Shown here: positions 22,372-43,199 of the stretch, one piece after another
How the letters are laid out: each line of letters opens with the position of its first letter
Numbering within the stretch: position 1 is the first letter of the stretch
From: a virus
DNA length: 43,199 nt
Virus record (IMG/VR): IMGVR_UViG_3300042756_000102
Reading direction: 5' to 3' (one strand)
The notes under the pieces: generated by a model
Seen by the model: only the letters and a program-made list of their open reading frames with translations
What the model was told of the DNA's origin: nothing
Database searches by the model: none
Program-made: the position numbers and the translations under genes

Positions 22372-22378
22372 CATTCAC

Positions 22379-24829: not shown

Positions 24830-25014
24830 TGGAAATCTTCTTCCCAGCCCTCTTGTCTCGTCAGAAAGCGATGCTCTTTACTGGTTTCGGACGGAAAAGG
24901 CTTGAGTCCCTTGCCAAGAAGGGTCAAGTACGCACATTTACCACCAGCGGTGGTCACAAACGGTACTTCCGAAATGACCTCACTAAATTTTTAAATGAAA
25001 TCTTACAAAAATAA
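24829..25014 (+). CDS. Small excisionase/MerR-type HTH protein (61 aa).
   Basis: TAATG overlap with the terL stop. LLSRQKAMLFTGFGRKRLESLAKKGQVRTFTTSGGHKRYFRNDLTKFL fits the excisionase-family HTH pattern. Confidence 0.5.
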   Translation: MEIFFPALLSRQKAMLFTGFGRKRLESLAKKGQVRTFTTSGGHKRYFRNDLTKFLNEILQK

Positions 25015-27187: not shown

Positions 27188-27456
27188 GTTATCCACAACA
27201 AATCATTGTAGGCTTCTCCTTTGAAAAACAGAATGAACTCTGGAAAGCCGTCCATCTCCTACTCGATGCTTCTATTGATTCTGAAGTTGCAAATGCTGTC
27301 TCTAAAGAAAATAAGGGCGAAGACCGTGCTTGGCATTGCGGCAGAGCCGATGCCCTTACCGCCTTTAAAGAAATCCTTGTGAACACACGCAACGATGTCC
27401 TACGAGACCAAGGAAGACCCTCAGAAGACCATTCCCCATCGGAAAACGGTATCTGA
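27184..27456 (+). CDS. Hypothetical protein (90 aa).
   Basis: ATGA overlap with the portal stop. Confidence 0.55.
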   Translation: MSYPQQIIVGFSFEKQNELWKAVHLLLDASIDSEVANAVSKENKGEDRAWHCGRADALTAFKEILVNTRNDVLRDQGRPSEDHSPSENGI

Positions 27457-27557
27457 CATAGTAAGTTCTTGCTTACAAACAAATTTAGCCGTAACTGGCT
27501 GGTAGTTCTGGGACTATAACACCCTGCCTAAATATATAGGACTTTAGACCTTATCTA

Positions 27558-28565
27558 ATGAATACAGACAATCAAGCCGACCTTAGCACGGCACAAAATA
27601 ACGCTATGACTCCCGAAGGAACATCCACTCCCTTCGATATTCAAAAACTCGCTGACATAGTTAGCGATTCGTTCCTAGGTGGTAAGGAATCGAGTGCGGA
27701 GTCACCCGCAGACGAAAACGGTGATTCGGAGGCTCAAGCGACCTCTGAGGACGATGTTCATTCACAAGAAACCGAAACAACTAACGACCAAAATCAAGTC
27801 GAGGACTCCGAGGAAACCGAAGAAACCAAGTCCGAAGATGATGAAATTGACCGTGGGTTGCCCAAGGGAGTCAAGAAACGCATTGACAAACTCTCCGCTA
27901 AACGCAGAGAGGCTGAAGCAGAAGTAGAAAGATTAAGGTCAGAAGTGGAAAGATTGTCGCAAGAGGCTACCAAGCCAGCACAAATTCCTACTGCCGAAAA
28001 TCCGTATGCCAACCTGTCTACGCTTGAGGAAGTCAGCCGTGAGGCAGACCAAGCCAAGCAAATCAGACGCTGGTGCGAAATGAATCCCGATGGTGCAGTA
28101 GTTACGGGAAAAGATGGTTCTGAAACCGAGTATACCGCTGAAGAAGTCCGCAATATCAAGATTAAAGCCCTTGATGCCCTTGAGGAACACCTTCCGAAGC
28201 GAATGCAGTATCTGCAAAACTTCAATCAGATGGAGCAGGTTGCTTCCAAGGAATACCCTTGGTGGAAGGACAAGTCAGCAAAGGAAAGACAAATTGCTGA
28301 ATCCTTTATTAAGCACTTCCCAGAAATCCAGAAATTCCCAGACTATAAGATGGTGGTAGGAGATTATATCCGTGGCGTAAATGCCCGTGAAGCCAAAGGC
28401 AAGTCCTCTGGTGCTCCAATCAAAGCCCCATCCCAGCCGAGACCTTCAGCCGCTCCCGCTCGTATTCCTGCAAAGGATGCGAACAGCCAAGCCGCTCAGA
28501 AGCGTTTTACTGTTTCTGGTAACCGAGATGACCTATCTTCTATAATCGCTAACCGATTCCTGTAA
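27558..28565 (+). CDS. Scaffolding protein.
   Basis: The N-terminus is acidic and low-complexity, the centre is coiled-coil (RREAEAEVERLRSEVERLSQE), and it lies immediately upstream of the capsid gene. Confidence 0.7.
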   Translation: MNTDNQADLSTAQNNAMTPEGTSTPFDIQKLADIVSDSFLGGKESSAESPADENGDSEAQATSEDDVHSQETETTNDQNQVEDSEETEETKSEDDEIDRGLPKGVKKRIDKLSAKRREAEAEVERLRSEVERLSQEATKPAQIPTAENPYANLSTLEEVSREADQAKQIRRWCEMNPDGAVVTGKDGSETEYTAEEVRNIKIKALDALEEHLPKRMQYLQNFNQMEQVASKEYPWWKDKSAKERQIAESFIKHFPEIQKFPDYKMVVGDYIRGVNAREAKGKSSGAPIKAPSQPRPSAAPARIPAKDANSQAAQKRFTVSGNRDDLSSIIANRFL

Positions 28566-28588
28566 CCCCCTAAAAACTATATACAAAT

Positions 28589-29617
28589 ATGGCAAATCTA
28601 ACAGAACCCTCCTTCTCGTCTGGTAAGAGAGAAGAACTCGCTGACCTCATCGCACTTGTCGATGCCAAAGATACCCCCTTCACCTCTATGGCGAAGAAGG
28701 GTAGCAAACCTGGAAATACCCTTTTCAGATGGCAAGCCGACTCTCTGCCTACTCCTAAGCAGACTGGTACAGTCGATGGTACGGATGTCTCCTCCTATGA
28801 CAACTATGTCAAGGATGGTGCTACCCAATACCGTGCTGAACTCAGCAACTACATCCAAATCTTCCGCAGAGCCGTCCGTGTGTCCCCGCTTACGCAGGAC
28901 ATCTCGACTGTCGCTGGTGTGAGAGACGAACTCGCTAACAATGTCGCTAAGGGCATCCAAGCCTTGAAGCGTGACATGGAAGCCACCTTCTGCTCCAACG
29001 GTGGTGCTCAAGCCGACAACGGTACGAACGCCTACCTCACCCGTGGTCTCCACAAGTGGTTACAGCCTATCGCTACAAAGGACTCCGTCCTCCCTGTCAT
29101 CGACCAGTTCTGCACCCCTACTGCTAACCGTTCGACAGTTGGTACAGCCGCCCTCACGGAAACGGTTGTCCAGAATGTCCTCACAGGCATCTACTCCCAG
29201 ACAGGTCAATACAAGGATTATGACGCTCTTGTCGGCACAGCCCTCAAGAGAGCGTTCACAAACCTCGTCTTCACGACTGCCTCTTCGGGTAGCACAAACA
29301 CCCAGACCGCCATCCGCACCTTCAATCGTGACTCTGACGCTTCGGCTTATGTTGCTTCGGTTGATGTTTTCGAGGGCGATTTCGGTAAGTTACGCCTCCA
29401 CCCCTCCCACTACCTCAATGCTACCGCTGGCGTTGGTTCGACCTTCACAGGTTACATCATCCCCTTCGACCAAGTTGAAGTGCGTTATGGTGGCAATGTC
29501 GCTGGTGTCACAGCCCTCACCAACAACGGTGGTGGCGAAGCCCGAATGATTGAAGCGGTTGCTGGACTTTGCGTCTACAACCCCCTCGCCTTCGGTGTCT
29601 TTGACTTCACAGCCTAA
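28589..29617 (+). CDS. Major capsid protein (HK97 fold).
   Basis: N-terminal pattern ELADLIALVDAKDTPFTSMAKKGSKPGNTLFRWQADSL is typical of one HK97-type capsid family. It is 342 aa and follows the scaffold gene. Confidence 0.85.
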   Translation: MANLTEPSFSSGKREELADLIALVDAKDTPFTSMAKKGSKPGNTLFRWQADSLPTPKQTGTVDGTDVSSYDNYVKDGATQYRAELSNYIQIFRRAVRVSPLTQDISTVAGVRDELANNVAKGIQALKRDMEATFCSNGGAQADNGTNAYLTRGLHKWLQPIATKDSVLPVIDQFCTPTANRSTVGTAALTETVVQNVLTGIYSQTGQYKDYDALVGTALKRAFTNLVFTTASSGSTNTQTAIRTFNRDSDASAYVASVDVFEGDFGKLRLHPSHYLNATAGVGSTFTGYIIPFDQVEVRYGGNVAGVTALTNNGGGEARMIEAVAGLCVYNPLAFGVFDFTA

Positions 29618-29625
29618 TAACTGAG

Positions 29626-29988
29626 GTGTCAGACATAATCCAAAGTCTGGCTGATGCAATCCCCTCCCACCTTAGAAATAGGGTGGAGAGGGAACTCATC
29701 AATGGCTGGAGGATGGATGAAGTCAAGGCAAGGAGCACAGCGAAGCAATCCGCTGTTTTTCGTCACTCTAACGAGGCTAATAACATCGAAGGAGTTGGAC
29801 GGTTGAAAGCACAGATTCCTATTCAAGCGTGGCACTACTGGGGTCAGCGTCTTGGGTATGAGTGCTGGGAAGACAATGCATTCCTAAACGAATTCCTACG
29901 GGACAACCCAGAAACAGCCGTTACCAATTATGCCAAGCGTACTTGTGTTAACGGTGCAATTTTCACAGGTGACGGATATCTCACATAA
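29626..29988 (+). CDS. Hypothetical virion-module protein (120 aa, GTG start).
   Basis: ORF directly after the capsid gene. The start codon is uncertain. Confidence 0.5.
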   Translation: MSDIIQSLADAIPSHLRNRVERELINGWRMDEVKARSTAKQSAVFRHSNEANNIEGVGRLKAQIPIQAWHYWGQRLGYECWEDNAFLNEFLRDNPETAVTNYAKRTCVNGAIFTGDGYLT

Positions 29989-30755
29989 TGAGAACATCGA
30001 ACTACTCGCAAATCCTATTTGACGCTCTCCAGTATTCTGGAAACGACAGACACAACATCACAAATGAGACATTCTCTCAGTTCCGTGATTTCAGTTCTGC
30101 TCGTATTCGTGAGGCTTGGGAATCTAACCAATGGGCAGATATCTGCCGACTGGTTGAGTTTACCACGACAACGGATGCAAATGGCGTTGTCTCGTTTACG
30201 CCCGTTACAGAGGCTGATGAGATTCTTGGCGTGTTCTCTAAGAACCCGCAAGAAACGACAAAGGCTGTGCAGTTGGCGTATCAGATTTACGACAGCGGTA
30301 CGGAGCGAAAGGTCATAGTCGGAAACGGTATCAGCGGTGGTTACTATCTCTATCGTAAGGACTGCATTGCCCTAGAAGGCGATTTATACAGCCCTACGGT
30401 TGTCTACTACCAAGGAGTCCAAGTCTATTTTGACTCTGGCTCTGGTACAGGCTCTTATGTTCCAGTCTTGGGTAAGCCCCACGCTGGCAATTTCTATACT
30501 TGCACCGTGGCTTCCACGACTGCTGGTCAAAACCCAAACACTCACCCAGCCTACTGGACAAAGACTGATATCCCGTATATCTTCTCTTCCTTTATGTCTT
30601 GGGGTTCTGCCGCCAATTGGTTTGTCTCTGAAGGTCAGATTCAAGAGGCGGCTACCATCGAAGCCAAGGCTAACCAAGTCCTTGAGCAAGAATACGACAA
30701 GTTCCTGCGTCAACAGGGGCAGTTCGGCAAAATCAACATGACAAACACTTACTAA
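29988..30755 (+). CDS. Virion structural protein (255 aa), head-tail adaptor or tubular-A-like.
   Basis: TAATG coupling; the assignment is from position only. Confidence 0.45.
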   Translation: MRTSNYSQILFDALQYSGNDRHNITNETFSQFRDFSSARIREAWESNQWADICRLVEFTTTTDANGVVSFTPVTEADEILGVFSKNPQETTKAVQLAYQIYDSGTERKVIVGNGISGGYYLYRKDCIALEGDLYSPTVVYYQGVQVYFDSGSGTGSYVPVLGKPHAGNFYTCTVASTTAGQNPNTHPAYWTKTDIPYIFSSFMSWGSAANWFVSEGQIQEAATIEAKANQVLEQEYDKFLRQQGQFGKINMTNTY

Positions 30756-30759
30756 TACA

Positions 30760-31059
30760 ATGGCTAACATCTCATTCTCCTCCCCCTTCCTCCGTGGTTT
30801 TACCCACGCTACCGTGACTGTTGGCACTTCTGCCAGCACCGCCCTTGTGGTTGCCCCTACCCCCGAAAGGCGTTGTAGCGTTATCATCCAGAACCAACAC
30901 GCTACGGCTGTTGTGACTGTTATCTTTGCTGATACTGGCTCTGTTGGCTTGAAGGTCAAGGCTGGCGAAAGCATCTCCCTCGACAACTACAACGGCATCG
31001 TGCGTTGTGTTTCTGATACCGCCTCTACCCCTGTCCACATTGCTTACGCCACGGCTTAA
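30760..31059 (+). CDS. Hypothetical structural protein (99 aa).
   Basis: ORF in the structural operon. Confidence 0.5.
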   Translation: MANISFSSPFLRGFTHATVTVGTSASTALVVAPTPERRCSVIIQNQHATAVVTVIFADTGSVGLKVKAGESISLDNYNGIVRCVSDTASTPVHIAYATA

Positions 31060-31895
31060 TGAGCGTAGACCTACATCGGATAGGCACAGGCATCTCGTCT
31101 GGCTCTAGCCGTAACGGGTTCGGGAACATCGTGTCGTTTCCTAGCGTGTCGTTCCCTGCGTATGGGACTTTTAACAGTTGGCTGTTGGATGTTGAGTACC
31201 CAATCGCTAATGGTGGGGCATCAGTAACTGTTCTTTCAGTAGCCTACCCTAGTCAATTCTGTGATGTTCAAGTAGAGAACGATGGCTCTGGCGGGACTTA
31301 CACAGATTGGACAACTGCTACGGATGTTCAATATTATGCTAATGCAACTTTCTTCTATTTTGGCGAAACTCAAGTCCCAACTTCGGTAGAAGTGCCTACT
31401 GGCTCTGGCAATTCCTATACAGGTGGAAGCACTCAGACGAATTACTATTTTGATGGGGCTGGTTCGTTTTACACCACAGCAGTAAATCAATCTTGGTATT
31501 CTGCGGGTACTAGCAATAATCTTACGGGACTAAACGCACCTGCTACGGTTCAAGTTCCGTCTTCTGGTGGCACTTACTATAATGACGGCACATATACAGG
31601 TTACACTTGGAATGGTTCTGGTGGCTACAATTATCCTGTTAACGGTGGAAGTCTTTACAGCAACGGAACATTTATTGTCTTTATACCAGACAGCACATTT
31701 AGTCAAAGCACCGAAGTTCCTAGCGGTAGCGGGACTTATTATAATGCTAAGTTTAACGGAGATGATTATTTCTGGAATGGTAGCGGTGGTTATAACATTA
31801 CTTCGGGTTCTTATTTCTACACTTACGGAACATTTATTTACAACGATGGAAGTTCCAACTACTACTGGGATGGTGCTGGAGGCTACTATACATAA
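31059..31895 (+). CDS. Tyr/Gly/Ser/Thr/Asn-rich repeat protein (278 aa), a likely surface or tail appendage.
   Basis: Four copies of a Y-(Y/F/T)-(W/F)-x-G-x-G-(G/S)-(Y/F) motif: NYYFDGAGSFY, TGYTWNGSGGY, DDYFWNGSGGY, SNYYWDGAGGY. Confidence 0.6.
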   Translation: MSVDLHRIGTGISSGSSRNGFGNIVSFPSVSFPAYGTFNSWLLDVEYPIANGGASVTVLSVAYPSQFCDVQVENDGSGGTYTDWTTATDVQYYANATFFYFGETQVPTSVEVPTGSGNSYTGGSTQTNYYFDGAGSFYTTAVNQSWYSAGTSNNLTGLNAPATVQVPSSGGTYYNDGTYTGYTWNGSGGYNYPVNGGSLYSNGTFIVFIPDSTFSQSTEVPSGSGTYYNAKFNGDDYFWNGSGGYNITSGSYFYTYGTFIYNDGSSNYYWDGAGGYYT

Positions 31896-31900
31896 CACTT

Positions 31901-32086
31901 ATGGCTACTGAACCTATCACAATCGCAACTGGCTGGAACGCCTTCGTCAAGGACAAGACCTGTCTTGGACTCAGAGAGTTCCCAAAAGGCGGCAAGTACT
32001 GGGGTACTCTTACCCTCATCACCAAGCCCACCGAGGCTGAACTGAAGGCTGAACTCAAGCGTCTCAAAATCTCTCTTCCTGCCTAA
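31901..32086 (+). CDS. Hypothetical protein (61 aa).
   Basis: ORF in the operon. Confidence 0.45.
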   Translation: MATEPITIATGWNAFVKDKTCLGLREFPKGGKYWGTLTLITKPTEAELKAELKRLKISLPA

Positions 32087-32087
32087 T

Positions 32088-32195
32088 ATGATTACACTTC
32101 TCCTTTCTACTGTCACCTTTCTTGGTGGCGTTTATGTCGGCACTCGCTGGTCTGAAAAGATTAAGGCTGTCTACTTTTCTATTATCTCTCAGTAA
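32088..32195 (+). CDS. 35-aa single-pass membrane peptide (not in the ORF track).
   Basis: ATG 32088. The peptide is MITLLLSTVTFLGGVYVGTRWSEKIKAVYFSIISQ, and its stop overlaps ATG 32195 (TAATG). Confidence 0.4.
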   Translation: MITLLLSTVTFLGGVYVGTRWSEKIKAVYFSIISQ

Positions 32196-34492
32196 TGCCT
32201 AATGAATACCAAAAGGACGGGGACATAAGATTTGTCGGGCTTAACAGCCGTGACAACCCTAGTGCTCTGCCTAAAGGTATTCTTAGTCGTTCTCAGAATT
32301 TCAGACTAGACCGTGGTGTTGCCCAGACAAGAAAGGGGCTTCAAAGAAAGACTATTGGCTCTATTGTTGGTCAAGTAATTTACGCTACAGGTACTTACAT
32401 CCAGTCTTCTGGACAGGAGATAATTGTGTTGGTTGTAGCAAACGGACTTTACACATACAACCCGCAGACAGAACTTCTTTCTTCTAAGATTTATTTCCCT
32501 AATTTTATAACTGGGAAAACGCTGACCTCAACGGACTCTCTTAATGTAACCGTTACATCAGCGGCTCACGGTCTTATTGTAGGTGCTAAGGTGTATGTTG
32601 AAACCACATACGCAGGATACTCTGGGTTGTTTACTATTACAGCGGTAACAACTAACACATTCTCCTATCTGATGCCAGCGGTTGCATCTGTTGGTGCGGT
32701 CACGGGGGTTGCTTGTTCTTATAGTGCCTCAGAATTAATTACAACTCCAGAGGGTTGTGATGTCTGCAACGCTATGGATAAAATCTTCATAAGCAGAGGA
32801 TTTGACAAGCGTCCGTTGATGTGGGACTTAAATGTAACAATTACTGCTCTTCCTGCCACTACTACCGCAGGTCACGAATTTCCTAACTGCACTAATTTGA
32901 TGTATTATGGCAATAGGTTAATTGCTATTGGCAAATATCACGCTGAAACAAATCCCCTTAGAAACTACGACACGGTTTCGGTTAGCAATTTCTTAGACTA
33001 TACTGACTGGGATATTGCAGACGCATTCTCTGTAAACAACGGAAGCAATGACCAACTCGTTGGCGTTGCACCTTGGACGCTTAATGAGTTCCTTGTGTTC
33101 ATGCGTAACAGCATTTACTATGTTTCTATTGGCAATGACAGATATGCAACAGGTGCGGCTCTAGGTTCAGATTCTTACATCAAGACGCTTGCTACTGACA
33201 TCGGTTGCCTAGCCAAGAAGAGCGTGGTACAGGCTGGTGGTGGCGTGTTCTTCCTGTCCGACAATGGCGTTTACTTCCTCCAGCCTCAGCCAGCGTCCGC
33301 TGAGTCAATGAAGTTGCTGACTATGGCTGACCCTATCTCAGCCCCAATTGATGACATCATCCAGCGTATTAACAGAAACTACGCCAGCAACGCTGTTGCT
33401 ACCTACTGGAACAACAGGTACTATTTAGCCGTTCCGTTAGACGATTCGGTTGTTAATAACACAGTATTGGTTTATAACTTTATTTTAAAAAACTGGGAGT
33501 CTGTTGATACATACCCTACGCTTGTAACTACTGGCAGTAATCTTGTTGCCGATTCTTGGACTATCAATACATCTGCATCTGGGCTAACTGATTACATTTA
33601 CATTGTTATAACAAAATCCGCAGTACCGCAACACGGACTGGCTGTCGGAGATTATGTTAATGTAAACTTCACAGGTCAGTCTTGGACTGGTTCTGGATAT
33701 GTTGATTTGCTTCCCCCAAGCGGAACATACAAGGTTATAGACGATGCGTATTCCAGCCTTGATTCTTCATCCTTTTATATAAAGATTCCAAAGTCTTCCT
33801 TTCTAGTCCTTCCGTATACTGGGACTTACCCTACTTTAAGTTGGATTTATCAACTTGGGTATGGTGTCACATTTGCCAAGGCTGAGTCTGTCTCCCTCAA
33901 GGAATTTATTGTAGTTAAGAAAGATAACCAGAGACGGATGTTCTTAGTTGATAACTACCAAGGCATATTCCTTACAGAACAATTAGATGTCGATGAGTTC
34001 GGTGAATCTATTGGAAACCCTATTCTTCCTACGCCTATTGCTAGTTTAGATACACCAGCAAACATTGCTTTAGGATTGTACGGAAACCTTGTCTTAGTTG
34101 CGTTGTATGATTCGCTAGGCAATCCTAATGCAAATGTAATTGTGTTAGACCCTCTGTCGTTCCAGAAGAACAACATTACTGCTGTCCTTGAGACAAGACA
34201 GTATACAATAGATAACATTACTGACAAACGATTCAGTTCTTACGAAGCAAACATCTTGACATCTGGCGGGGAAAGAATTGAAACCTACGCTGAGGTCAGT
34301 AACCCAGATGTAAGAGTTAGGGTGGACTCTCTTGGCTCTTCCTCCTCAGAAGACTACAACAGAAGCAACCCCATCAGAAAAACTGGGTCTGGCTTAATCC
34401 TCAAATTTATTTCTTACTCTAAGCGTCCATCTATAAGGTCTGCCTTTATTTACGCAACTCAACAGAAAAAGAACAATATAAACAAACAATAA
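32195..34492 (+). CDS. Large tail protein (765 aa), tubular-B/nozzle-like, with inserted AHGL-type domains.
   Basis: Size and position are analogous to T7 gp12. It contains TVTSAAHGLIVGAKVYVETTYAGYSGLFTITAVTTNTFSY and a second copy, PQHGLAVGDYVNV. Confidence 0.55.
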   Translation: MPNEYQKDGDIRFVGLNSRDNPSALPKGILSRSQNFRLDRGVAQTRKGLQRKTIGSIVGQVIYATGTYIQSSGQEIIVLVVANGLYTYNPQTELLSSKIYFPNFITGKTLTSTDSLNVTVTSAAHGLIVGAKVYVETTYAGYSGLFTITAVTTNTFSYLMPAVASVGAVTGVACSYSASELITTPEGCDVCNAMDKIFISRGFDKRPLMWDLNVTITALPATTTAGHEFPNCTNLMYYGNRLIAIGKYHAETNPLRNYDTVSVSNFLDYTDWDIADAFSVNNGSNDQLVGVAPWTLNEFLVFMRNSIYYVSIGNDRYATGAALGSDSYIKTLATDIGCLAKKSVVQAGGGVFFLSDNGVYFLQPQPASAESMKLLTMADPISAPIDDIIQRINRNYASNAVATYWNNRYYLAVPLDDSVVNNTVLVYNFILKNWESVDTYPTLVTTGSNLVADSWTINTSASGLTDYIYIVITKSAVPQHGLAVGDYVNVNFTGQSWTGSGYVDLLPPSGTYKVIDDAYSSLDSSSFYIKIPKSSFLVLPYTGTYPTLSWIYQLGYGVTFAKAESVSLKEFIVVKKDNQRRMFLVDNYQGIFLTEQLDVDEFGESIGNPILPTPIASLDTPANIALGLYGNLVLVALYDSLGNPNANVIVLDPLSFQKNNITAVLETRQYTIDNITDKRFSSYEANILTSGGERIETYAEVSNPDVRVRVDSLGSSSSEDYNRSNPIRKTGSGLILKFISYSKRPSIRSAFIYATQQKKNNINKQ

Positions 34493-34493
34493 T

Positions 34494-35738
34494 ATGGCTC
34501 AACTTTCTAAAGGCGAAACATTTGCCGACTCTCAACAACTTACTGCCACACGGCTTAACCAACTGGTAGACTCTGCCACCATTCTTGTGGGTGCTATCAC
34601 CGACCAGCCTAGCATCACGGCTAACACGCTAGAGGCTACCGATACCACTATTGTCAACGATGGCGGGACGCTCAAGGAAGCCACCATCAGCGACTTCTTG
34701 AACAGCGGTCTGCCCGTTACAAGTGCTGTTATTAATGCCCCAGCAACCAAGGACATCGTAGTTACCCCTTATGATTCGGCTTCTGTTGCAGGAAGTAATT
34801 ATATCAGCGGTGATGGCTTGACTGTTGTTGTCACAACTCTTGCCGCCCACGGGCTTGCTGTAAACAATGTGGTATTAATTTCTGGTGCTGGCACGGGCTA
34901 TAATGGCACATTTAAGATTACGGCTGTTACTTCGTTAACATTTACATATGTTCTAGGGCTTCCTGCGGCTACTCCGACAGCCTCCGCTACCGCTTGCACA
35001 TATGTGAAAAAGGCTAGTGAGATTGTAAACGGAAACATAGTTGCCACTAAAAGTGCTTTTGTAACTGAAAACATCACTTGTGAAGGAAATGTTCTTATTA
35101 AGGGTCAAACTGAATTAACAAACGCTCCTACAATTGGAGGTAAAAGCCTTCCTCAGTTGTACGATGTAGTTGAAGTTACTGTTCCTGCTTACAGTTGGGG
35201 CAACGGCAATAGCAATACTGCGTACACCTATGACCAGATGTTCTTGTCTAATACCTATGTTAAGCCAGTAGATGAAATCTGGATTATTGAAGTCGATATG
35301 AAGATTATGTCGATGTCTGCCTCCTCTAGTGGTTATGGATTGGTTCGTGGTACTAACTGGAAAATGGAAACTGTGGCTACTACTGGTGGTGCAATTACAT
35401 TTGCAAATAATTGGGTTCAAAGAACGGATGCAATTGGTGGTTACATTAATGGCTCAAGCGGATATTCAAACATTTCCCTAGAACAGTTTTATTGGAAGTA
35501 TGTTATTCCTAAAACGGTTGCCTTTGATGGCAAGTTTAAGATTTCCGCAATGCAAAATATTCCTCAAGGCTGGGCTAATCAGACGGATGGTTTTACTGCC
35601 ATCAGTCCTACTTCCGCTGGGACTAATGTTAATCAAGCCTACTGGCAGGGTTTAGCAACTGTTGGAACTGCTGGCAACATTGCAACCAACTTCCCTTGGA
35701 GAACTACCTTCCGAATCTTTAAGCACAGAGTTACTTAA
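34494..35738 (+). CDS. Tail fibre or receptor-binding protein (414 aa).
   Basis: Shares the domain LTVVVTTLAAHGLAVNNVVLISGAGTGYNGTFKITAVTSLTFTY with the preceding gene. The N-terminus LSKGETFADSQQLTATRLNQLVD is typical of fibre N-termini. Confidence 0.6.
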   Translation: MAQLSKGETFADSQQLTATRLNQLVDSATILVGAITDQPSITANTLEATDTTIVNDGGTLKEATISDFLNSGLPVTSAVINAPATKDIVVTPYDSASVAGSNYISGDGLTVVVTTLAAHGLAVNNVVLISGAGTGYNGTFKITAVTSLTFTYVLGLPAATPTASATACTYVKKASEIVNGNIVATKSAFVTENITCEGNVLIKGQTELTNAPTIGGKSLPQLYDVVEVTVPAYSWGNGNSNTAYTYDQMFLSNTYVKPVDEIWIIEVDMKIMSMSASSSGYGLVRGTNWKMETVATTGGAITFANNWVQRTDAIGGYINGSSGYSNISLEQFYWKYVIPKTVAFDGKFKISAMQNIPQGWANQTDGFTAISPTSAGTNVNQAYWQGLATVGTAGNIATNFPWRTTFRIFKHRVT

Positions 35739-36163
35739 TGACACTTGGTGACCTCATCTCCTACATAAAGGCGAACCGTAACAAGGGTCGTGGGGAAGCC
35801 TTTGGCTGGACGGACGATGAGTTGATTACCTACATCCATTGGGCTGATACCTTCAGATACCTGTTTGTTGTATCGGATGAAAATGGCTTTGCTGGGTGTA
35901 CGGTTATGTATCCTGTTGCCAAGCCTGTTGCTGGAGAACCGCAGGAACTAATGACTTTTAAGGCAAATATCCCTCAATCCGAGGAAGGTACTGCCGACCT
36001 ATGTATAATGGATTTTGTGGCATCAAGCCCAGAGGCAAAGAAAAGCCTTGTAATCCAACTTAAGGAAAGATATCCAAACTGGAGCAATCAAGATAAGTGG
36101 GCTTTACGGTTTGGTAATATAAAGAAACTTTCTAATAACTACATTAACCTTTTAACTATATAA
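35738..36163 (+). CDS. Hypothetical protein (141 aa), in the position of T7 gp13.
   Basis: TAATG coupling; no motif recognised. Confidence 0.5.
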   Translation: MTLGDLISYIKANRNKGRGEAFGWTDDELITYIHWADTFRYLFVVSDENGFAGCTVMYPVAKPVAGEPQELMTFKANIPQSEEGTADLCIMDFVASSPEAKKSLVIQLKERYPNWSNQDKWALRFGNIKKLSNNYINLLTI

Positions 36164-36167
36164 CACA

Positions 36168-37142
36168 ATGGGAAAGAGAAAAATATCAGCACCAGCACCT
36201 CGTGACTACAAGCAAGAAATGCTTGATTCTATGGCTGGGCAGGAAGCCATCCAGCCACGCCTTCTAGAACTAGAACGCCAGTACCAGCCCCTGTACCAGA
36301 AACTCCAGCAGGAGATGATGGACAGGCAGATGGGGTATCAGATGGATTCCTACGAGAAGGCTCTGCCACGCTCTCAACAGATTGCGGGGATGGCTCAACA
36401 GGGGGCTATGTCAGCCTACAGGCAGGGCATGGGTGCAAACACAATGGGGCTGTACGACACCATGTTAGCATCGGCTCAGTCTGACCTTTCTGCTGGTCGA
36501 GGGCTTACCCCAGAGATGGAAAAGTACAGCCAACAGGCGGCTCGACAGGCTATGGCGGCTAGGGGTCTATCTGGCAACCAAGCGGTTGCCCAAGAGGTTC
36601 TTAACTCCTATCAATTAGGTGGACAGAGGGAAGACAGGTCTAGACAATTTGCTGGGATGATGTACGGGGCAGGACAGGGTAACCTCCAGAACGCTTTGGG
36701 CAACTACAGCCCGTATGCTCCCCAAACAATGTATGGCGGGGCGGCTTCAATGACTCAAGGTCTAGGTGCTCAAATCTTTAATCCCGAATCCCAGTATAAC
36801 GCTGGTCTTATTACTGCTAACCGTAAAGAGGCAATGGATGTCAAGATTGCTAACCAGCAAGCCAGCAACTCGTTTACCAATGGTCTTATTGGAGCGGCTG
36901 GTGCTGTCGGTGGTGCTTTCCTTGGCAATCCTGCGTTGTTTGCTGGAAGTCTTGGTGGCGGTGGTGGCATGAACCTTGGTGCTAATTCAAACATTTACTC
37001 GTCTCTTCCTTCTTATGGTTCTTCTATAACAGGAGCATCCCCATACAGCATGGGAAGTACTAATCTAGGAATGAGCATGAGTGGCTCGTCCTTTGGTTCT
37101 GGAGGACTAACAATGGGTGGATTTAACACAAGGGGTTACTAA
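36168..37142 (+). CDS. Internal virion protein, Gln/Gly/Met/Ser-rich low complexity (324 aa).
   Basis: Called from its composition and its position before two larger internal-protein genes (gp14-like position). Confidence 0.6.
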   Translation: MGKRKISAPAPRDYKQEMLDSMAGQEAIQPRLLELERQYQPLYQKLQQEMMDRQMGYQMDSYEKALPRSQQIAGMAQQGAMSAYRQGMGANTMGLYDTMLASAQSDLSAGRGLTPEMEKYSQQAARQAMAARGLSGNQAVAQEVLNSYQLGGQREDRSRQFAGMMYGAGQGNLQNALGNYSPYAPQTMYGGAASMTQGLGAQIFNPESQYNAGLITANRKEAMDVKIANQQASNSFTNGLIGAAGAVGGAFLGNPALFAGSLGGGGGMNLGANSNIYSSLPSYGSSITGASPYSMGSTNLGMSMSGSSFGSGGLTMGGFNTRGY

Positions 37143-37145
37143 TTT

Positions 37146-39830
37146 ATGGCATCTTCTTTTGGCAAATATCAAGGTGGTATTGAGGCTTCTACTGGAAATC
37201 TAGTTCCCGCATTTGGTCAGATGGCGGCTCAGACAGCCCAGACTATTGCTGGGTTTGGTCAGAACATTGCCCAAGGTCTTCAAGCGTACAACGAGAACTC
37301 TGCTAAGAATGATATTCTTACCGCTGAGGCTGAGGCTCTTGGTGGTCAGATTCAGCAGTATGCACAGATGTTTGGTGACAGCCCAGAACACGCTGAGTTC
37401 GCAAGGTCATTACAACCCTACATCGAGAAACTTTCTAAAGTCCCTTCTATGTCGCTTACCCAGAAGATGGGTACAGTCACAAGCGTAAAGGCTGGCTTTG
37501 CTAACATCGGTCAGCAGTTGCAGGTCTTTGAACTCATGCGTGGCGAGCGTATGAAGCGTGACATGAATGTCGCTAGAGACGGGGTCAAGGAATACGATGA
37601 AGTCACAGTCCCCACGGCTATTATTCCTTCTGGTAAGATGCCTTACTTCTACGACAAGTCCTACACAGAGAATGAGGCTGAGATTACTCGCCTTGCTACG
37701 GAGGCTCAAGGAAGAGGGGCTAATGTTGATATTGCTAAGGTTCTCAGCGATTGGAGAAGCCAGTTCAAGGCTTCTGCCATGTCCAGAACTGATATGCCTC
37801 CAGAAGTTAAGGAAGCACTTATCAAGCAGATTGATGCTGGCGAAGGTCTTGAAAGCAACATTCAAACCGATGACAGCGGTGTAACCGACTATGCCAAGGA
37901 AGCCGATATGTATGGTAGAACCAGCACATCAGTTAAGGAGCAACTCACTCCTGCTAAGGTTGAAGCCTCTGCTATTGCTCCATCTGTTTCAACTAAAGTT
38001 AATGAGTTAAGACAAAAATCTTTTGAAATAGAAAAAGCAATTGCTTCTCTTAATCAGAAAGGCAAAGTTCAAGAAACAATTTCTGACGCTGAGTTCAACA
38101 AACTTGTTGATAAAGACCCATCACCCAGCAGATTTACTAAGGTTTCTAACCTTGAAGAACAGGGCTGGAGGAAGTCTAAGGACGCTAAGGGCAATCAAGT
38201 TTGGTCTAGACAAACTTCCGACAAGCCCACCGCTGAGGCTCTTGCAAAATACAGAACCGAACTTGATTCTGTTAAGCAAGAAGAATATAGAATCAATGGC
38301 GAACAAATTGCCAAGGCTAAGACTCCTCAAGGTGAAATTGAGGCTCTTCAAGAGCGTAAAAGACTGCTTGAAAAAGACAAAAACAATCTAGATAGGATTG
38401 AAGGCTCTGTCCTTCCTACGCTGGCTGGTTGGACTTCTAGGCAGATTTCTGACGCTATGCAAAATCAACCTGCTTTCCAAGCCCTTGCTAGAAGCAGAAA
38501 AATGATTACTGGTGAACAAATCACACCAGAGGTTGCAAAAGAACTTGTTGAAGAATTTAGCAGTATGAAGCACATGGGCATTCCTCTTGTTGGAGGAAGC
38601 ATTAAGGCTTTATTTGATACAATTATTAATTTAGGTGGTGCTGAAAACCTTACCAAGAGAGATAAACAAAATATTGCTACAGCGGTAAATGACTATAAGT
38701 CAAAAATGAATTCGGATTCTGAATTTAGAAACACAGGAATTGATAAATCTCCAGAAAGAGAAATTGTAGATATTGACGAAAGAATTGAAAGACTCCAAAG
38801 AAAACTTCCTAGCACAGAGCCATCTCAAGGCACTCAATCTGCACAAGGTACGCAAGCAGGTAGTGTTGCAACGGGAACGCCACAAGTTGCCCAGCCAGAA
38901 AATGCATACACTTTAACTAATCAGAGAAACTTGTCGCTTGGTACAACTACCCAGCAGATGGCAACTTCTATTGAGAGCAAGCGTAATGACATGAAGACTT
39001 TCTTTACTCAGAAGTACGGGTACATCCCTGCCTCGTTTGAAGAGTCGTTCAAGGCTATCTACCCAGAAGCCAACTTCAAGACGATGGAAACCCCTTACGG
39101 TGCATTCATGCATGACGGCAAGGAATGGAAGCAGATTCAAATGCAACAACCCAAGGTCATGTCTCGCAAGGAGATGGCTGAAGAAAAGGCTGTTTCGTTC
39201 GGCAAGTTACAATCTGACGGAAGCATTGACATCAATGAATACGCAGAACTCACACCTAACTCTGGCGTGTTCGTCCGTGGCATCTTTGGAGGTTCTCCCT
39301 CTGACGCTTCTAAATTTAGAACACAAATGCTTGAAGGCTCTAACGCTAAGAGGGCTGTTGGCAGACTTATTGAAATCAATGAGATGGCTGGCGAATCTAT
39401 GCCTTGGAATGCTAAGTTGTGGGGCGAAGCCAAGGCTCTCCTTCCCCAAATCAAGGCTGGATTAAGAATTGACATCATTGGTGTTGGTACAGTTTCTAAC
39501 TACGAACAGCAACTCATCGAAGATGTTGTGGCTGACCCGACCAAGTTCTGGTCTCTTGAGTCTTCCGATAGGGCTAAGTTGCAGGTTATCATGGACAAGA
39601 TTAGCAACAAACTTATACAAGAACCTGCCAATCACGGACTTGATGTCAAGGTAGGCGGTAGAACTAACGCTCAAAGAGAGAAGGAAATCCGTATGAGTGC
39701 TCTTGGTTCTGGCAAATCTAAATTACAACTTGATTACGAGGCAAGAGGTGGTAAAACAGGTACATCGCTTGACTGGAAGAATAAGACTATCGCCCTCCCA
39801 GACGCATTCAAAAAAGCACTTACTGAATAA
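37146..39830 (+). CDS. Internal virion/ejection protein (894 aa).
   Basis: Gp15-like position. It has a Gly/Gln-rich N-terminus and an AT-rich coiled-coil insert at roughly 37960-38900. Confidence 0.6.
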   Translation: MASSFGKYQGGIEASTGNLVPAFGQMAAQTAQTIAGFGQNIAQGLQAYNENSAKNDILTAEAEALGGQIQQYAQMFGDSPEHAEFARSLQPYIEKLSKVPSMSLTQKMGTVTSVKAGFANIGQQLQVFELMRGERMKRDMNVARDGVKEYDEVTVPTAIIPSGKMPYFYDKSYTENEAEITRLATEAQGRGANVDIAKVLSDWRSQFKASAMSRTDMPPEVKEALIKQIDAGEGLESNIQTDDSGVTDYAKEADMYGRTSTSVKEQLTPAKVEASAIAPSVSTKVNELRQKSFEIEKAIASLNQKGKVQETISDAEFNKLVDKDPSPSRFTKVSNLEEQGWRKSKDAKGNQVWSRQTSDKPTAEALAKYRTELDSVKQEEYRINGEQIAKAKTPQGEIEALQERKRLLEKDKNNLDRIEGSVLPTLAGWTSRQISDAMQNQPAFQALARSRKMITGEQITPEVAKELVEEFSSMKHMGIPLVGGSIKALFDTIINLGGAENLTKRDKQNIATAVNDYKSKMNSDSEFRNTGIDKSPEREIVDIDERIERLQRKLPSTEPSQGTQSAQGTQAGSVATGTPQVAQPENAYTLTNQRNLSLGTTTQQMATSIESKRNDMKTFFTQKYGYIPASFEESFKAIYPEANFKTMETPYGAFMHDGKEWKQIQMQQPKVMSRKEMAEEKAVSFGKLQSDGSIDINEYAELTPNSGVFVRGIFGGSPSDASKFRTQMLEGSNAKRAVGRLIEINEMAGESMPWNAKLWGEAKALLPQIKAGLRIDIIGVGTVSNYEQQLIEDVVADPTKFWSLESSDRAKLQVIMDKISNKLIQEPANHGLDVKVGGRTNAQREKEIRMSALGSGKSKLQLDYEARGGKTGTSLDWKNKTIALPDAFKKALTE

Positions 39831-39835: not shown

Positions 39836-42800
39836 ATGGCTGAATTATACGCTAAACCTTTCGAGACTATCGATACGGGTTATAATCCTCAACAGCCACA
39901 GGGTGGCGGTCAGTCAAGTGAAACAGACGAGTATCTGTCCTCCCTTCCCCCAGAGGAAAGACAGGCGGCTATAGAACGCTTGAACGCCCCCTTAACTGGC
40001 GAGGAGTTGGCAACGCTGGCTAACTCTGGTCAGAGGCAACCATCTCTTGCTGAGTTTGCTGAGATTGAAAAGTTTCACAAGAACCACGAAATCTCTTTTA
40101 TTGATGGGCTTGGCAAGATAGCCGAAGGTGGTGAGCAGTTTATGACAGACATCTCTAAGGCGTTTGGGGCTATGTTAGATAACCCTTCTGATGTTGCGTC
40201 AAAAATGCCAGCCACAGCGGTTGAGGCGTTTGCTCAAGGTACAAGAAATTTCTACGGGATGTTGGCAGAGTCTAGCAACACGGACTCTATTTTATTTAAG
40301 GTTAAAGATTTTCTTAACGGCACAGGTTCTATTGAAGACAGATACAATCAATATCTTCAAGCCTTAAAATTTAACAAGGACTCTATGGAGTTACTGGAAG
40401 GCAAGCAGACAATGGTCATGGATGCCGACATGATTAACCACGAAGTTACTCAAGCAATGGCTTACATTGCTGACCCGACTCTTTTTATTCCGTTTGGCAA
40501 GGTTGCCTCTACGGGTCTTCGTGCGGTTGGTCTTGGCGAAAAACTTGCGATGGCTGGTGCTAGGTCTGCGGCTATTAAGAACGCTATCATTGGAAACACA
40601 ATTAAGTGGGGTGTTGGTCAGCCACTTGAGTTCCTTGGTGGTGCTGTTAGAAATACTATTGACTACGGATTAGACAAGGCTGGACAGGCTTTTGAAGCCA
40701 CTACTGGAATTGGGGCTAAGGAGTTCGGGCAGACCGCCAGAATGTCTGGGATAGGCTTTTCTGCCTCAGCAGTCGCTGGTTATTCTGTTCCCTTTGCCTC
40801 TACTGTCTCTGATGCCTATATCGTAGGTTCTTCTGCCAGAGGCTTTGGCGAGGCTCTGACCCTCATGGGTGAAACCATGTCTAAGAATAAGTTCGGGCGG
40901 GGCATCAATACTTGGGCAACCGAGGCTATGGAACAGGCTGAAAAGAACGGTATTGTCCTCAGTCCTCATGCCAAGGGTCTATTAAAGACTCTTAATGCCG
41001 TTGACCCGTTGTTTGCCTACGGATGGAACGGGCTTGAGGGTGCTTCGCAAGGTGCTTTTATTGGTGGCGGTCTGGGTTATCTTAACGCTGGAGAAGAGGG
41101 TATGTATAGTGGTATTGGTGCTGGTATTGCTATGGGTGCTGTTGGTGCTACTGCTGGCAAGATGGTGGCTGATGTGACTGGCGGTACTAATGTCGCTAGA
41201 CGAGCCGTTCAAGCCAAGATGGTTATTGAAGGTCACAAGGTAACCAACCCAGACAAGGCTATGTTCTTTCAAGCCATGCAGACTACTGCTGAGGCTAGAG
41301 GACAAGATGTAGACTTGGTTAACGGCATTATTGCTGGTATCGATAAGGTCGCTCCGAACTTTGAGTTCCATGCAATGACTCCAGAACAATTTGCAGTTGA
41401 GGCTGTCAAGAAAGGTTACAACCCGTACACAGGAAAGTTTGCAGAACGCTCTGCATTAGACCATGAATTCGGTGGAGACAGAGCCTCTAAGTCTAAGGCT
41501 ATGGGCATCCTTCGTGCTGTTGGTGGTGACTTTGTAGGCAACAGCAAGGCGTTTCTTGATGCCATTAAGAAGGCTTCTGCAAAAGACTCTGCTAATCCTA
41601 GCAAACCAGCGAGTAACATCCCTGCCAATTTAAGAAAATACACAGATATTGCTAAGACATTTGATAAACTCACCAAGACACAGCAAGACGCTATTCTTAG
41701 AGAAATTGATGGACAGGCTGACATTGCTAAAGACCTAGGTGGCAACACAAAACTTCGTGACTACTACGACACTCTTACATGGTCTGAAGGTTGGACTGAT
41801 GCGTTAGTCAAGAAATTTGAGTCTGACAGAGATGGTGCAAGAAAAGATATCACAGATATGCTTGCACAGGAAACCAAGAAGGACGGCAAGATGACAAACA
41901 AGGGTCGTGCTTTGGTGGACAAACTGCGTAACGAAGGGTTCTTAGACAAAGAAGGCAAGTTGCTCCGTGAGCGTAATCTGCTTCAAGCGGACATGACTCT
42001 GATGGAGTTCGCTACGGTCAAGGGTGGCGTGATGAGAAGAGAGGCTGACGGAAAGACTCATATGTATATCAATCTTAACAAGATGGGTAGCGAGACTTTC
42101 CCGCACGAACTCTTCCATACCATCATGCGTGAGTCTCCAATGAAAGACCATTTCACCAAGTCTCTCATTCAAAAACTTGTTGGCTCGTTTGATGAAAAGG
42201 GCAATCTTGTCAGAAACGGAGAAGTCAATATTAACCAAGTCCGCAAGTTTTTTAAGAAGTATATTAACCTTACTTCGTACAACGAAGACGGCACATTAAA
42301 TGCAGACAAGGCTGGAGAAACTATGAAGGCTGTTGAGGTCGCACTTGCCGAGTTTGAACAGTCTGGCAAAACCAAGAAGATTTCTGACAAGTCTAGAGCA
42401 CTCCTAGAGCACTACACAGAAGAGTTCGGTGCTTACTATTTCTCGCATTGGCTGATGGGTCGCAACAGAAACACCCTGTTTTTTGGTGGCGAACTCAAGG
42501 GCATCGAAGGTCTTGTCGAAAGAACAAAGGACGGCTTTATGGATTTCTGGCAGTCTAAGATTTCTAAGGCTAACCCAGAGTTTAATTTTGCTAAAGGTCT
42601 GAACGCCTCGTTTGACAGGTCTAAGGGTCTTGGTCGTATCTCCTCGATGGACTATTACATGAGGGACATGGTCAGAGCCGCTTCTAACGCTAATCAAAAT
42701 GCGTTCCGTCCCGACTCGATGACCCTTGAGAACCTCAGAGACTTTGAGCGTAGCAACGGACTTAGAAACCTCACCACGCCAGACGGCAACAGAAGACTCA

Positions 42801-43199
42801 ACCCCCGTGAACAGGTCACCCAGAACATCCGTCTCGGCAAGGAAGCCCACAAAATTATCAGCGGTCTGGACAAGAAACTACGCACATCAGTAGACACAGT
42901 TGACGATAAGGGTAAGCCAGTCATCACAGGCAGACTATCTGAAACAGAGTTAGACGCTCTTGTTAAGGGTGGTATTGTCCCTAGGGCTTGGGCTGACAAG
43001 GTCAACCAAGGCTATGCGATGCTTGACGGCACAGTTTCTAATGTGTTCTCCGCTGGTTACCTTGGCAAGACCGAGCAGACCACCGATGCCTCCTACCCCA
43101 GACTTACTGGAAGTGCTGTTGCGTTCAAGAACCGCAAGGCTATCTTGTTTGATGTCGAGACCAAGATTAAGGCTGACGGCACATTCTACACGCTCTTCC
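39836..43199 (+). CDS. N-terminal part of the giant ORF (1,079 unique codons to 43072, then continues at base 1). Contains Gly-rich hydrophobic segments and an HExxH motif.
   Basis: ATG at 39836, 5 nt after the stop of the 894-aa gene. I translated it by hand and found no stop through 43199. PHELFH is encoded at 42101-42118. GAFIGGGLGYLNAGEEGMYSGIGAGIAMGAVGATAG is a glycine-zipper-like segment. Confidence 0.85.
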   Translation, partial: MAELYAKPFETIDTGYNPQQPQGGGQSSETDEYLSSLPPEERQAAIERLNAPLTGEELATLANSGQRQPSLAEFAEIEKFHKNHEISFIDGLGKIAEGGEQFMTDISKAFGAMLDNPSDVASKMPATAVEAFAQGTRNFYGMLAESSNTDSILFKVKDFLNGTGSIEDRYNQYLQALKFNKDSMELLEGKQTMVMDADMINHEVTQAMAYIADPTLFIPFGKVASTGLRAVGLGEKLAMAGARSAAIKNAIIGNTIKWGVGQPLEFLGGAVRNTIDYGLDKAGQAFEATTGIGAKEFGQTARMSGIGFSASAVAGYSVPFASTVSDAYIVGSSARGFGEALTLMGETMSKNKFGRGINTWATEAMEQAEKNGIVLSPHAKGLLKTLNAVDPLFAYGWNGLEGASQGAFIGGGLGYLNAGEEGMYSGIGAGIAMGAVGATAGKMVADVTGGTNVARRAVQAKMVIEGHKVTNPDKAMFFQAMQTTAEARGQDVDLVNGIIAGIDKVAPNFEFHAMTPEQFAVEAVKKGYNPYTGKFAERSALDHEFGGDRASKSKAMGILRAVGGDFVGNSKAFLDAIKKASAKDSANPSKPASNIPANLRKYTDIAKTFDKLTKTQQDAILREIDGQADIAKDLGGNTKLRDYYDTLTWSEGWTDALVKKFESDRDGARKDITDMLAQETKKDGKMTNKGRALVDKLRNEGFLDKEGKLLRERNLLQADMTLMEFATVKGGVMRREADGKTHMYINLNKMGSETFPHELFHTIMRESPMKDHFTKSLIQKLVGSFDEKGNLVRNGEVNINQVRKFFKKYINLTSYNEDGTLNADKAGETMKAVEVALAEFEQSGKTKKISDKSRALLEHYTEEFGAYYFSHWLMGRNRNTLFFGGELKGIEGLVERTKDGFMDFWQSKISKANPEFNFAKGLNASFDRSKGLGRISSMDYYMRDMVRAASNANQNAFRPDSMTLENLRDFERSNGLRNLTTPDGNRRLNPREQVTQNIRLGKEAHKIISGLDKKLRTSVDTVDDKGKPVITGRLSETELDALVKGGIVPRAWADKVNQGYAMLDGTVSNVFSAGYLGKTEQTTDASYPRLTGSAVAFKNRKAILFDVETKIKADGTFYTLF
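43073..43199. repeat. Terminal redundancy, copy 2 (identical to 1-127).
   Basis: Same 127-nt string as the window start. Confidence 0.95.

Follow-up and report, generated by a model that had tools for sequence, protein, structure and literature searches.

A probable polyvalent protein of 3,177 residues, with shuffled modules and a recurrent boundary motif, encoded by one gene of a 43-kb tailed-phage genome

Polyvalent proteins of phages are predicted to be delivered together with the DNA and to be processed proteolytically into effectors (Iyer et al. 2017, PMC5512222; statements made here about that paper refer to the available portion of its text). The ADP-ribosyltransferases (ARTs) found in these proteins have an H-Y-D configuration, a phage GNAT family typically adjoins the ART, and an MPTase domain is a constant feature of the N4-like virion RNA polymerases (PMC5512222). 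One such protein, the 2,811-amino-acid (aa) polyvalent protein gp47 of phi24B, was found in podovirus virions by mass spectrometry and was proposed to be an ejection protein (bioRxiv 10.64898/2026.04.10.717836). We analyzed a giant gene in a 43,199-nucleotide (nt) stretch of viral DNA, IMG/VR record IMGVR_UViG_3300042756_000102, which is referred to in full as the window. An earlier note, made from the sequence of the window, had described this gene as a single open reading frame (ORF) interrupted by the ends of the assembly. Our overall explanation, which we consider probable, is that it is a real gene for a modular polyvalent protein of 3,177 aa that would be packaged in the virion, ejected, and used to modify the host. 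The giant gene, its modules, and its immediate neighbors all lie on the plus strand, and positions are those of the window.

The first 127 bases of the window were found to be identical to bases 43073 to 43199, confirming the duplicated end described in the earlier note, and no longer exact terminal repeat was present. The frame that begins with the ATG at 39836 was open up to the end of the window, and frame 1 contained 2,098 open codons from base 1 to a stop codon at 6295-6297. When bases 39836-43072 (residues 1 to 1079; bases 43073-43199 only repeat 1-127) were joined to bases 1-6297 (residues 1080 to 3177 and the stop codon), the product was 9,534 nt long, divisible by 3, and free of stops other than the terminal one. 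The re-circularized translation thus yielded the in-phase total of 1,079 + 2,098 = 3,177 codons that the note had claimed, corresponding to 22.1% of the 43,072-bp unit, and the linear ORF list did split the gene as reported, showing only 73-6297. An exact overlap of 127 nt is a typical k-mer assembler leftover on circular or circularly permuted genomes and alone is no proof of circularity. Continuity was instead established from independent contigs. Orthologues in four independent IMG/VR contigs aligned collinearly across the junction at residues 1079/1080, one of them (L006) with residues 795-1828 at 88% identity and the other three (L002-L004) over residues 1-1389/1603. In approximately 45 IMG/VR loci, a syntenic and uninterrupted ORF of 2,300 to 3,400 aa lay wholly inside the contig. 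Within a 39-sequence alignment, Met1 was invariant and Ala2 nearly so. The ORF that runs from 39836 through the junction to 6297 is one real, continuous gene, and the window represents a tailed-phage genome of approximately 43.07 kb whose assembly closes into a circle.

A search of 5.8 billion proteins identified 188 relatives of the giant protein, which among the matches listed were 2,068 to 3,663 aa long and came mostly from contigs of 10 to 44 kb. Family members are already present in UniProt as "NAT_SF domain containing protein." No cultured relative was found in a phage collection of 50,697 records, against which tblastn of both halves of the protein gave no match, and nothing significant was returned when the whole protein and its halves were searched with Pfam, PHROGs, and NCBIfam. 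Module limits were drawn from the coverage of the query by its relatives and from the pile-up of alignment end-points. As judged from these alignments, the layout is a conserved N-terminal part (residues 1-1320), variable middle modules, and a conserved C-terminal beta domain. The middle modules were reordered, duplicated, and replaced among relatives, with 28 module orders seen in 120 relatives and the order in the query (M4, M6-M7, M8, M9) being unique. In the 58 related loci scanned, the modules never occurred as separate genes outside the giant ORF.

The conserved N-terminal part begins with a region, M1 (residues 1-530, positions 39836..41425), that belongs to all relatives (it was present in 114-120 of 120), and the glycine-zipper segment that the earlier note had seen at the N terminus was located at residues 398-448 (nt 41027-41179), where many Gly residues are invariant. 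Around it, residues 389-510 (window 41000-41365) gave TraT-like matches with the single sequence (1.3e-3 in the PDB, 1.2e-3 in NCBIfam, and 0.29 in Pfam) that cover the region of TraT holding its amphipathic outer-membrane helices. A TraT-like membrane region was nevertheless set aside as compositional or unproven, as the matches were far below family cut-offs and were lost with a 36-sequence family profile of the region. This part of M1 may be a glycine-zipper segment that inserts into membranes, or the match may be compositional only. The conserved N-terminal part also contains a core, M2, that spans the junction (residues 700-1079, positions 41933..43072, and residues 1080-1330, positions 1..753), the second portion of which holds the first of two small beta domains (residues 1246-1320, nt 499-723). 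The HExxH motif that the note had placed downstream of the N terminus is the HELFH at residues 757-761 (nt 42104-42118), and a motif of the form HE[LIMVA][FYL]H was kept in 170 of the 170 relatives that cover this region. Approximately 100 residues further on is EEFGAYY (residues 862-868, nt 42419-42439), in which E862, E863, F864, G865, and Y868 are invariant. In the AlphaFold2 model of M2, which had a predicted local distance difference test (pLDDT) score of 72.9, strands 32-36 and 42-46 (model numbering) were followed by a helix, 56-67, that carries HExxH, and EEFGAYY with its two invariant glutamates was placed on a later long helix, 152-176, making it a candidate source of the third metal ligand. 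This succession of two strands, HExxH helix, insert, and later helix corresponds to the minimal zincin layout described for polyvalent-protein peptidases (PMC5512222). When the core was compared by Foldseek to predicted viral structures (BFVD), it matched proteins of uncultured phages with a probability of 1.0, E = 8e-16 to 1e-10, and 14-27% identity, and the UniProt names of the matched proteins were "Large polyvalent protein associated domain-containing" and "ART-PolyVal-like"; taken together, the proteins so named were matched over a wider E range of 1e-16 to 1e-8. A comparison by hhalign of the core with the MPTase region of ten N4-like virion RNA polymerases placed the HExxH motifs in register, at a weak probability of 20% (P = 0.0012).

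Established sequence models did not recognize this core. Pfam searches of 38 core homologues gave nothing significant, the matches being one to Tox-MPTase2 at E = 0.14 and other, unrelated weak ones; the Pfam LPD and MPTase-PolyVal models matched neither the query nor these 38 homologues; and the M2 family profile found no match in the PDB. The core was found in just 93 clusters out of 1.84 billion cluster representatives. In full-length cluster members, it lay near residues 500-1500 of proteins of up to 4,588 aa, and the shorter matches listed were apparently fragments. It also occurs in distant giant proteins of 2,500-4,588 aa (P0136, P0148, P0155-P0159, P0164, and P0186), most of which, for example P0136, P0148, and P0159, showed no enrichment of the boundary motif described below. 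A Pfam search of five distant giants of 2,436-4,588 aa (P0164, P0175, P0180, P0184, and P0186) produced no match at or above the curated cut-off and one sub-threshold match to DUF7178.

The first module of the variable middle, M4 (residues 1507-1851, positions 1282..2316), contains a variable insert and appears to be an ART-like module of the H-Y-D type. The four best matches of its family profile in the PDB were the catalytic domains of cholix toxin and exotoxin A (E = 0.035-0.2), and the alignment pairs the HGT and G-x-F-x-A...Y segments of these proteins. Thirty-one of 171 family proteins carry, as a unit separate from M4, a domain matched by Pfam ART-PolyVal (PF18760) at E = 7e-17 to 1e-14; PF18760 had no match in the query. 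Local hhalign comparison of short-form M4 sequences to this Pfam-verified ART-PolyVal module gave a probability of 80% (P = 1.3e-5 over 108 columns), and the insert-laden M4 alignment reached a probability of only 14%. The invariant residues of M4 are H1556 (in HGT), T1595, D1762, D1771, and D1776, a set that fits the H-Y-D configuration of the polyvalent-protein ARTs (PMC5512222).

A GNAT-like acetyltransferase module, M8 (residues 2561-2760, positions 4444..5043), was nearly universal in the family and occurred in 1 to 4 tandem copies in relatives. The Pfam GNAT model (PF00583) matched the query at E = 0.14 and the relative P0078 at E = 2.7e-6, and many relatives have precomputed GNAT matches. 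All 11 PDB matches of the M8 family profile were GNAT-type proteins, the best at E = 0.03. The remaining middle modules have conserved residues of their own. M6 (residues 2082-2235, positions 3007..3468), whose invariant residues are H, G, H, H, R, R, E, Q, and N, was nearly always accompanied by its partner M7 (residues 2318-2575, positions 3715..4488). M9 (residues 2771-3096, positions 5074..6051) has invariant D, GG, WA, H, and Y residues and was modeled with a pLDDT of approximately 80-95 over the domain, the score for the joint M9+M10 model being 80.4. Neither the profiles of M6, M7, and M9 searched against PDB sequences (no meaningful match) nor the M9+M10 model compared to the PDB by Foldseek (no match below E = 0.15) revealed a relative. 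The protein ends with the small beta domain M10 (residues 3098-3177, positions 6055..6294), which is present in all relatives and was modeled as beta strands followed by a helix. Iterated M10 profiles matched 171 of 171 proteins, 163 of them twice, and the second copy in the query was residues 1246-1320. The variable region is thus enclosed by two small beta domains that are paralogues of each other. Two further segments separate the domains: residues 530-700 form a linker that is variable among relatives, and residues 1321-1491 (positions 724..1236) form a charged, Gly/Pro-poor helical linker, probably a coiled coil according to a crude composition test. Where the note had described several coiled coils, this one clear stretch was recovered and no others were established.

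Taken together, these results support the assignment of the giant protein, on the basis of its sequence features, as a form of the known phage polyvalent proteins. Several unrelated effector-type domains (HExxH, ART-like M4, GNAT-like M8, M6-M7, and M9) are found in one chain, and the gene sits among late/structural genes, after those for the capsid and tail and before the holin gene, an arrangement that is syntenic in 40-50 loci. The polyvalent architecture proposed in the earlier note is borne out by the ART-PolyVal and GNAT domains of the relatives, the ART-like and GNAT-like modules of the query, the universal HExxH, the shuffling of modules, and the fold of the core. The families to which the note had looked for this, LPD and MPTase-PolyVal, gave no Pfam match, and ART-PolyVal was recovered in the relatives and not in the query; at E <= 1, none of the signature Pfam domains (LPD1-39, MPTase-PolyVal, and ART-PolyVal) was found in the query. 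Several results count against the assignment. The HExxH domain, M6, M7, and M9 are not recognized by any Pfam, PHROG, or NCBIfam model. Because Foldseek finds no PDB relative of the M2 model (nothing below E = 0.25), the term "zincin peptidase" is drawn from the motifs, the layout, and the one weak profile alignment. The similarity that identifies M4 as an H-Y-D ART-like module is marginal (E = 0.035), and residue 1599 (window 1558-1560), which is Tyr in 26 of 27 relatives, is Phe in the query alone, so that the activity of M4 in the query may be altered. The P-loop of M8, RGNKLA, departs from the usual R-x-x-G-x-G/A. New in this analysis are the outline of a compact family whose HExxH core escapes current models, a pair of conserved ends with an array of modules between them that is bracketed by paralogous beta domains, and a motif at the boundaries between modules.

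This boundary motif, [FWYM]-x-P-x-[ED], occurs at exactly five sites in the query, all of which coincide with module boundaries, compared to 1.1 +/- 1.0 sites in shuffled sequences. At every boundary, the motif takes the narrower form [FWYM]-[QKM]-P-x-[ED]. The first, WQPDD (residues 1258-1262, positions 535..549), lies in a block of the M2 model with a pLDDT of approximately 56; the second, FQPDE (residues 1824-1828, positions 2233..2247), is at the peak of alignment end-points at residues 1821-1840; the third, FQPSE (residues 2571-2575, positions 4474..4488), coincides with 140 alignment start-points in residues 2561-2580; the fourth, YMPAE (residues 2752-2756, positions 5017..5031), and the fifth, FMPAE (residues 3113-3117, positions 6100..6114), are in a segment and a linker, respectively, of the M9+M10 model with a pLDDT below 50. 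Thus, all three sites that fall within modeled regions (the first, fourth, and fifth) are in low-confidence linker. Alignment breakpoint bins, which were defined independently of the motif, hold four of the five sites, and the remaining one comes ahead of the first small beta domain. The 162 relatives examined had on average 5.8 motifs per protein versus 1.6 after shuffling, a 3.6-fold excess, with the family consensus [RNK]-[FYW]-[QKM]-P-[ASDT]-E-[GM]. A motif was present no more than 25 residues from 184 of 239 GNAT starts and 216 of 239 GNAT ends, from 21 of 30 ART-PolyVal starts and 24 of 30 ART-PolyVal ends, and from 84 of 98 M9 starts and 269 of 334 M10 starts, compared to a background fraction of 0.09 in each case. 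In an unbiased count of gapped patterns in the relative P0002, "YQP" ranked first and "QP.E" second (8 versus 0.28 expected). The second motif residue tended to be the same within a protein, the fraction of identical pairs being 0.61 versus 0.29 when proteins were pooled (Q, K, M, or S/T lineages). In the rest of the genome, the motif was at chance level (0.45 versus 1.57 per 1,000 aa), and it was absent from the neighboring virion genes.

Two simple explanations of the motif were rejected. The five query sites use different codons, indicating that conservation is at the peptide and not the DNA level, and a DNA-level recombination site is thereby ruled out. Recognition by a virion maturation protease of general action was rejected because no gene for such a protease was found and the motif is at chance level in other genes and missing from the adjacent virion genes. 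Our tentative preference is for the motif marking sites of proteolytic processing, with Glu at position P1, that would release the modules. Cleavage is favored because the motif occurs strictly between modules, lies in low-confidence linker at the modeled sites, ends in Glu, is specific to this protein, and is found alongside an HExxH motif that is never lost. The available portion of the 2017 polyvalent-protein paper predicts cleavage, gives no signal for it, does not use the word "linker," and describes no boundary or cleavage motif (PMC5512222), and this family offers a concrete candidate. Two points count against our explanation. The uniformity of the second residue within a protein could reflect shared ancestry or module duplication and not co-evolution with a protease. 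In addition, several sub-lineages keep the HExxH core yet lack motif enrichment, from which it follows that the peptidase cannot exist solely to cut the motif.

The main rival account, which we regard as possible but rather unlikely, is that the motif is a short docking motif or structural cap through which one partner binds all modules. Possible partners are the small beta domains, a component of the capsid core or portal, and a host factor, and binding would compact the chain in the head or order its threading. The motif immediately precedes each copy of the small beta domain, which had weak polo-box-like Foldseek matches (probability <= 0.75, not significant), polo boxes being peptide-binding domains, and its peptide-level conservation in low-confidence linker suits a short linear motif as well as it does a cleavage site. 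N4 gp50, moreover, is packaged unprocessed despite its peptidase domain (PMC5512222). Conversely, the AlphaFold2 models show no confident contact between the motif and an adjacent domain, and no partner has emerged. A polyprotein requires such strict placement between enzymatic modules that fold independently and probably act on different targets, and Iyer et al. predicted such processing (PMC5512222).

The following sequence of events can be proposed by analogy with described systems. The giant protein would be packed in the capsid and leave it with the DNA, in the manner of N4 gp50, P1 DarB/DdrB, or phi24B gp47, with the conserved ends presumably serving packaging and passage. If the motif is a processing site, it would then be cut to release the modules, for which the protein's own putative HExxH metallopeptidase would be the most parsimonious candidate. 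Host proteins would be ADP-ribosylated and acetylated by the modules, aiding takeover or countering defense. A stronger form of this proposal, about which we are doubtful, is that the protein is a programmable polyprotein whose own metallopeptidase, after ejection, reads [FWYM]-[QKM]-P-x-E as a dedicated signal to cut. Were this true, any motif-flanked module between the two beta domains would be packaged, injected, and freed as an enzyme, and polyvalent proteins would have their first processing code defined by sequence, as well as a natural plug-and-play system for phage cargo delivery. Even the simpler processing proposal, if it holds, would make the conserved ends and the motif the minimal elements of a design by which proteins of choice could be sent into bacteria along with phage DNA. 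The family shows a 43-kb phage holding a changeable set of predicted host-modifying enzymes within one gene, and it contains widespread domains (the HExxH core, M6-M7, and M9) that have no recognizable relatives of solved structure.

We also considered whether the giant protein might be purely structural, an oversized ejection or channel protein similar to T7 gp16 or a tape-measure protein, with its middle modules acting as spacers. We judge this to be improbable. It would suit the location of the gene, which follows the tail genes at the end of the structural block and is itself followed by the holin gene; the glycine-zipper N terminus and the charged helical segment; and the lack of enzymatic relatives found for M6, M7, and M9. 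Set against a structural role are the invariant catalytic-type residues of M4 (H, T, and three D), M8, M6, and M9, the bona fide Pfam ART-PolyVal and GNAT domains of relatives, and the free reordering and changes in copy number of modules, which are ill-suited to a structure that determines length or forms a channel.

A further reading sees in the giant protein a divergent version of the N4 virion RNA polymerase, containing a hidden single-subunit RNA polymerase for early genes. The nearest named relatives of the capsid protein include many N4-like phages at approximately 27% identity, the N4-like virion RNA polymerases always have an MPTase domain (PMC5512222), to which the HExxH region could be weakly aligned, and no RNA polymerase gene was detected elsewhere in the genome. 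Despite this, the reading is very improbable: phmmer searches of both halves of the protein against PDB chains gave no RNA-polymerase match at E <= 1, every family module profile failed to match N4 gp50, no spare conserved region of approximately 1,100 aa is available to hold a polymerase, and the replication and recombination genes suggest dependence on host enzymes. The most remote of the alternatives, that the 127-nt overlap is an assembly artifact that joins two unrelated contig ends and makes the 3,177-aa ORF chimeric, appeals to the exact terminal repeat being typical of k-mer assembly, and it is already refuted because independent contigs are collinear across residues 1079/1080, about 45 contigs carry the whole syntenic gene internally and uninterrupted, and gene order is kept on both sides of the junction.

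The remainder of the genome is consistent with a tailed phage. The large terminase (PHROG 2, E = 6e-14) and the major head protein (PHROG 1328, E = 9e-51), an HK97-type capsid protein, were identified, and the structural genes also include one for a 765-aa virion or tail protein. The replication arm encodes Erf, a DnaC/IstB-like ATPase, a RepC-type initiator, a PD-(D/E)XK exonuclease, a metallophosphatase, and an SLT transglycosylase. Among the genes of the 43-kb genome, neither an RNA or DNA polymerase nor a prohead protease was detected. The gene order g765-g414-g141-g324-g894-GIANT-holin-g234 was kept in 40-50 related contigs. The two genes immediately upstream of the giant gene, encoding proteins of 324 and 894 aa (positions 36168..39830), are candidates for ejection or tail-associated proteins. 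The earlier note had described these two and the giant gene as three consecutive internal-virion-like genes; both ORFs exist and are syntenic in 49-50 loci, and no family match stands behind the label, the 324-aa and 894-aa proteins having no significant match in Pfam, PHROGs, or NCBIfam (a lone hflC match at E = 0.036 and 12.9 bits was far under the cut-off). Because of this, the term "internal-virion-like" refers, for these neighbors, to position and synteny. The holin gene (positions 6294..6599) is identified by a PHROG holin match (E = 9e-5), two transmembrane segments, and its downstream syntenic position, and the structural block ends with it. Several kilobases from the holin gene, within the replication arm on the minus strand, the gene for the SLT-type transglycosylase, which is probably the endolysin, occupies 11151-11627 on that strand.

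The head genes and the block that encodes the tail-proximal or ejection proteins have different histories. Between the window and locus L019, the capsid protein is 98% identical, yet identity is 37-44% in g324 and in the core of the giant protein. As judged from such comparisons, the head region (window 28589-29617) and the tail-proximal/ejection block (36168-43072 plus 1-6297) evolve separately, with the head being far more conserved. In locus L009, the holin is identical, the C-terminal domain is 96% identical, and g141 is 31% identical. The nearest records to the capsid protein were the uncharacterized phage C75C1 (33% identity), other uncultured phages, the pelagiphage HTVC106P, and many N4-like phages (approximately 27%). 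In C75C1 (L001, OQ984151), the nearest deposited phage by capsid, a 2,769-aa gene that follows the tail genes runs across the record origin (38751..7576). This gene was rejected as a relative, since its product has no HExxH, no motif above chance, and no detectable similarity to the giant protein. Giant genes at this genomic position seem, from these sequences, to have emerged or been exchanged on at least two occasions.

Three other features of the window lie outside the giant gene and its block. Five tRNA genes (Thr-TGT, Arg-TCT, Gln-TTG, Leu-TAA, and Ile-TAT) occupy 21947-22453 on the plus strand, just upstream of the packaging genes. The approximately 1 kb upstream of this cluster, 20890-21947, contains no ORF of at least 80 aa. 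Mirror-image ORFs of 322 aa are present on opposite strands at 18780-19748 (plus) and 18834-19802 (minus), and the minus-strand ORF is probably a shadow ORF because a PHROG match (E = 3e-18) supports the plus-strand one.

The giant gene and its product can be compared to five described systems. With T7 gp14, gp15, and gp16, the locus shares its location, which closes the structural block in a short-tailed phage genome of approximately 40 kb, and the fact that the last gene is the largest. Unlike the T7 proteins, the giant protein is approximately 2.4 times the size of gp16 and has shuffled enzyme-like modules, the SLT transglycosylase is a separate gene elsewhere, and PHROG, Pfam, and NCBIfam searches found no similarity to gp14, gp15, or gp16 in the 324-aa, 894-aa, or giant proteins. 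The substrates of the prohead proteases of T4 and phiKZ are cut after Glu. These substrates, like viral polyproteins, resemble the giant protein by having a recurrent, Glu-ending short motif in flexible linkers, and they differ from it in that P3 is Pro here and not Leu/Ile or Ser/Ala/Gly, no prohead protease was detected here, and the motif is absent from other virion proteins. N4 gp50 (3,500 aa) and the other Schitoviridae virion RNA polymerases are likewise giant, have one HExxH (MPTase) domain, and come from phages with a distantly related capsid protein. N4 gp50 is packaged in the virion and ejected, whereas these steps are predicted for the protein described here, in which an RNA polymerase module was not found; family module profiles had no match in N4 gp50, which contains one chance-level copy of the motif. 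The gp47 protein of the Stx podovirus phi24B is also a giant podovirus protein that combines polyvalent domains with a metallopeptidase, and, when compared by its description, it differs in having Pfam LPD5, LPD1, LPD38, and Muf-C domains, none of which was matched here. The giant protein also resembles the phage-type polyvalent proteins as a class, which are very large and multi-domain, are encoded in a late/structural gene setting, are subject to extensive domain reshuffling, and combine a zincin-type HExxH domain with an H-Y-D ADP-ribosyltransferase and an adjoining GNAT domain (PMC5512222), a combination that the HExxH domain and the ART-like and GNAT-like modules would match here. Relative to these proteins, the one described here has an HExxH domain, M6-M7, and M9 that are missed by the MPTase-PolyVal and LPD models, carries its modules between two conserved ends, both of which terminate in a copy of one small beta domain, and has a recurrent motif at the boundaries of its modules.

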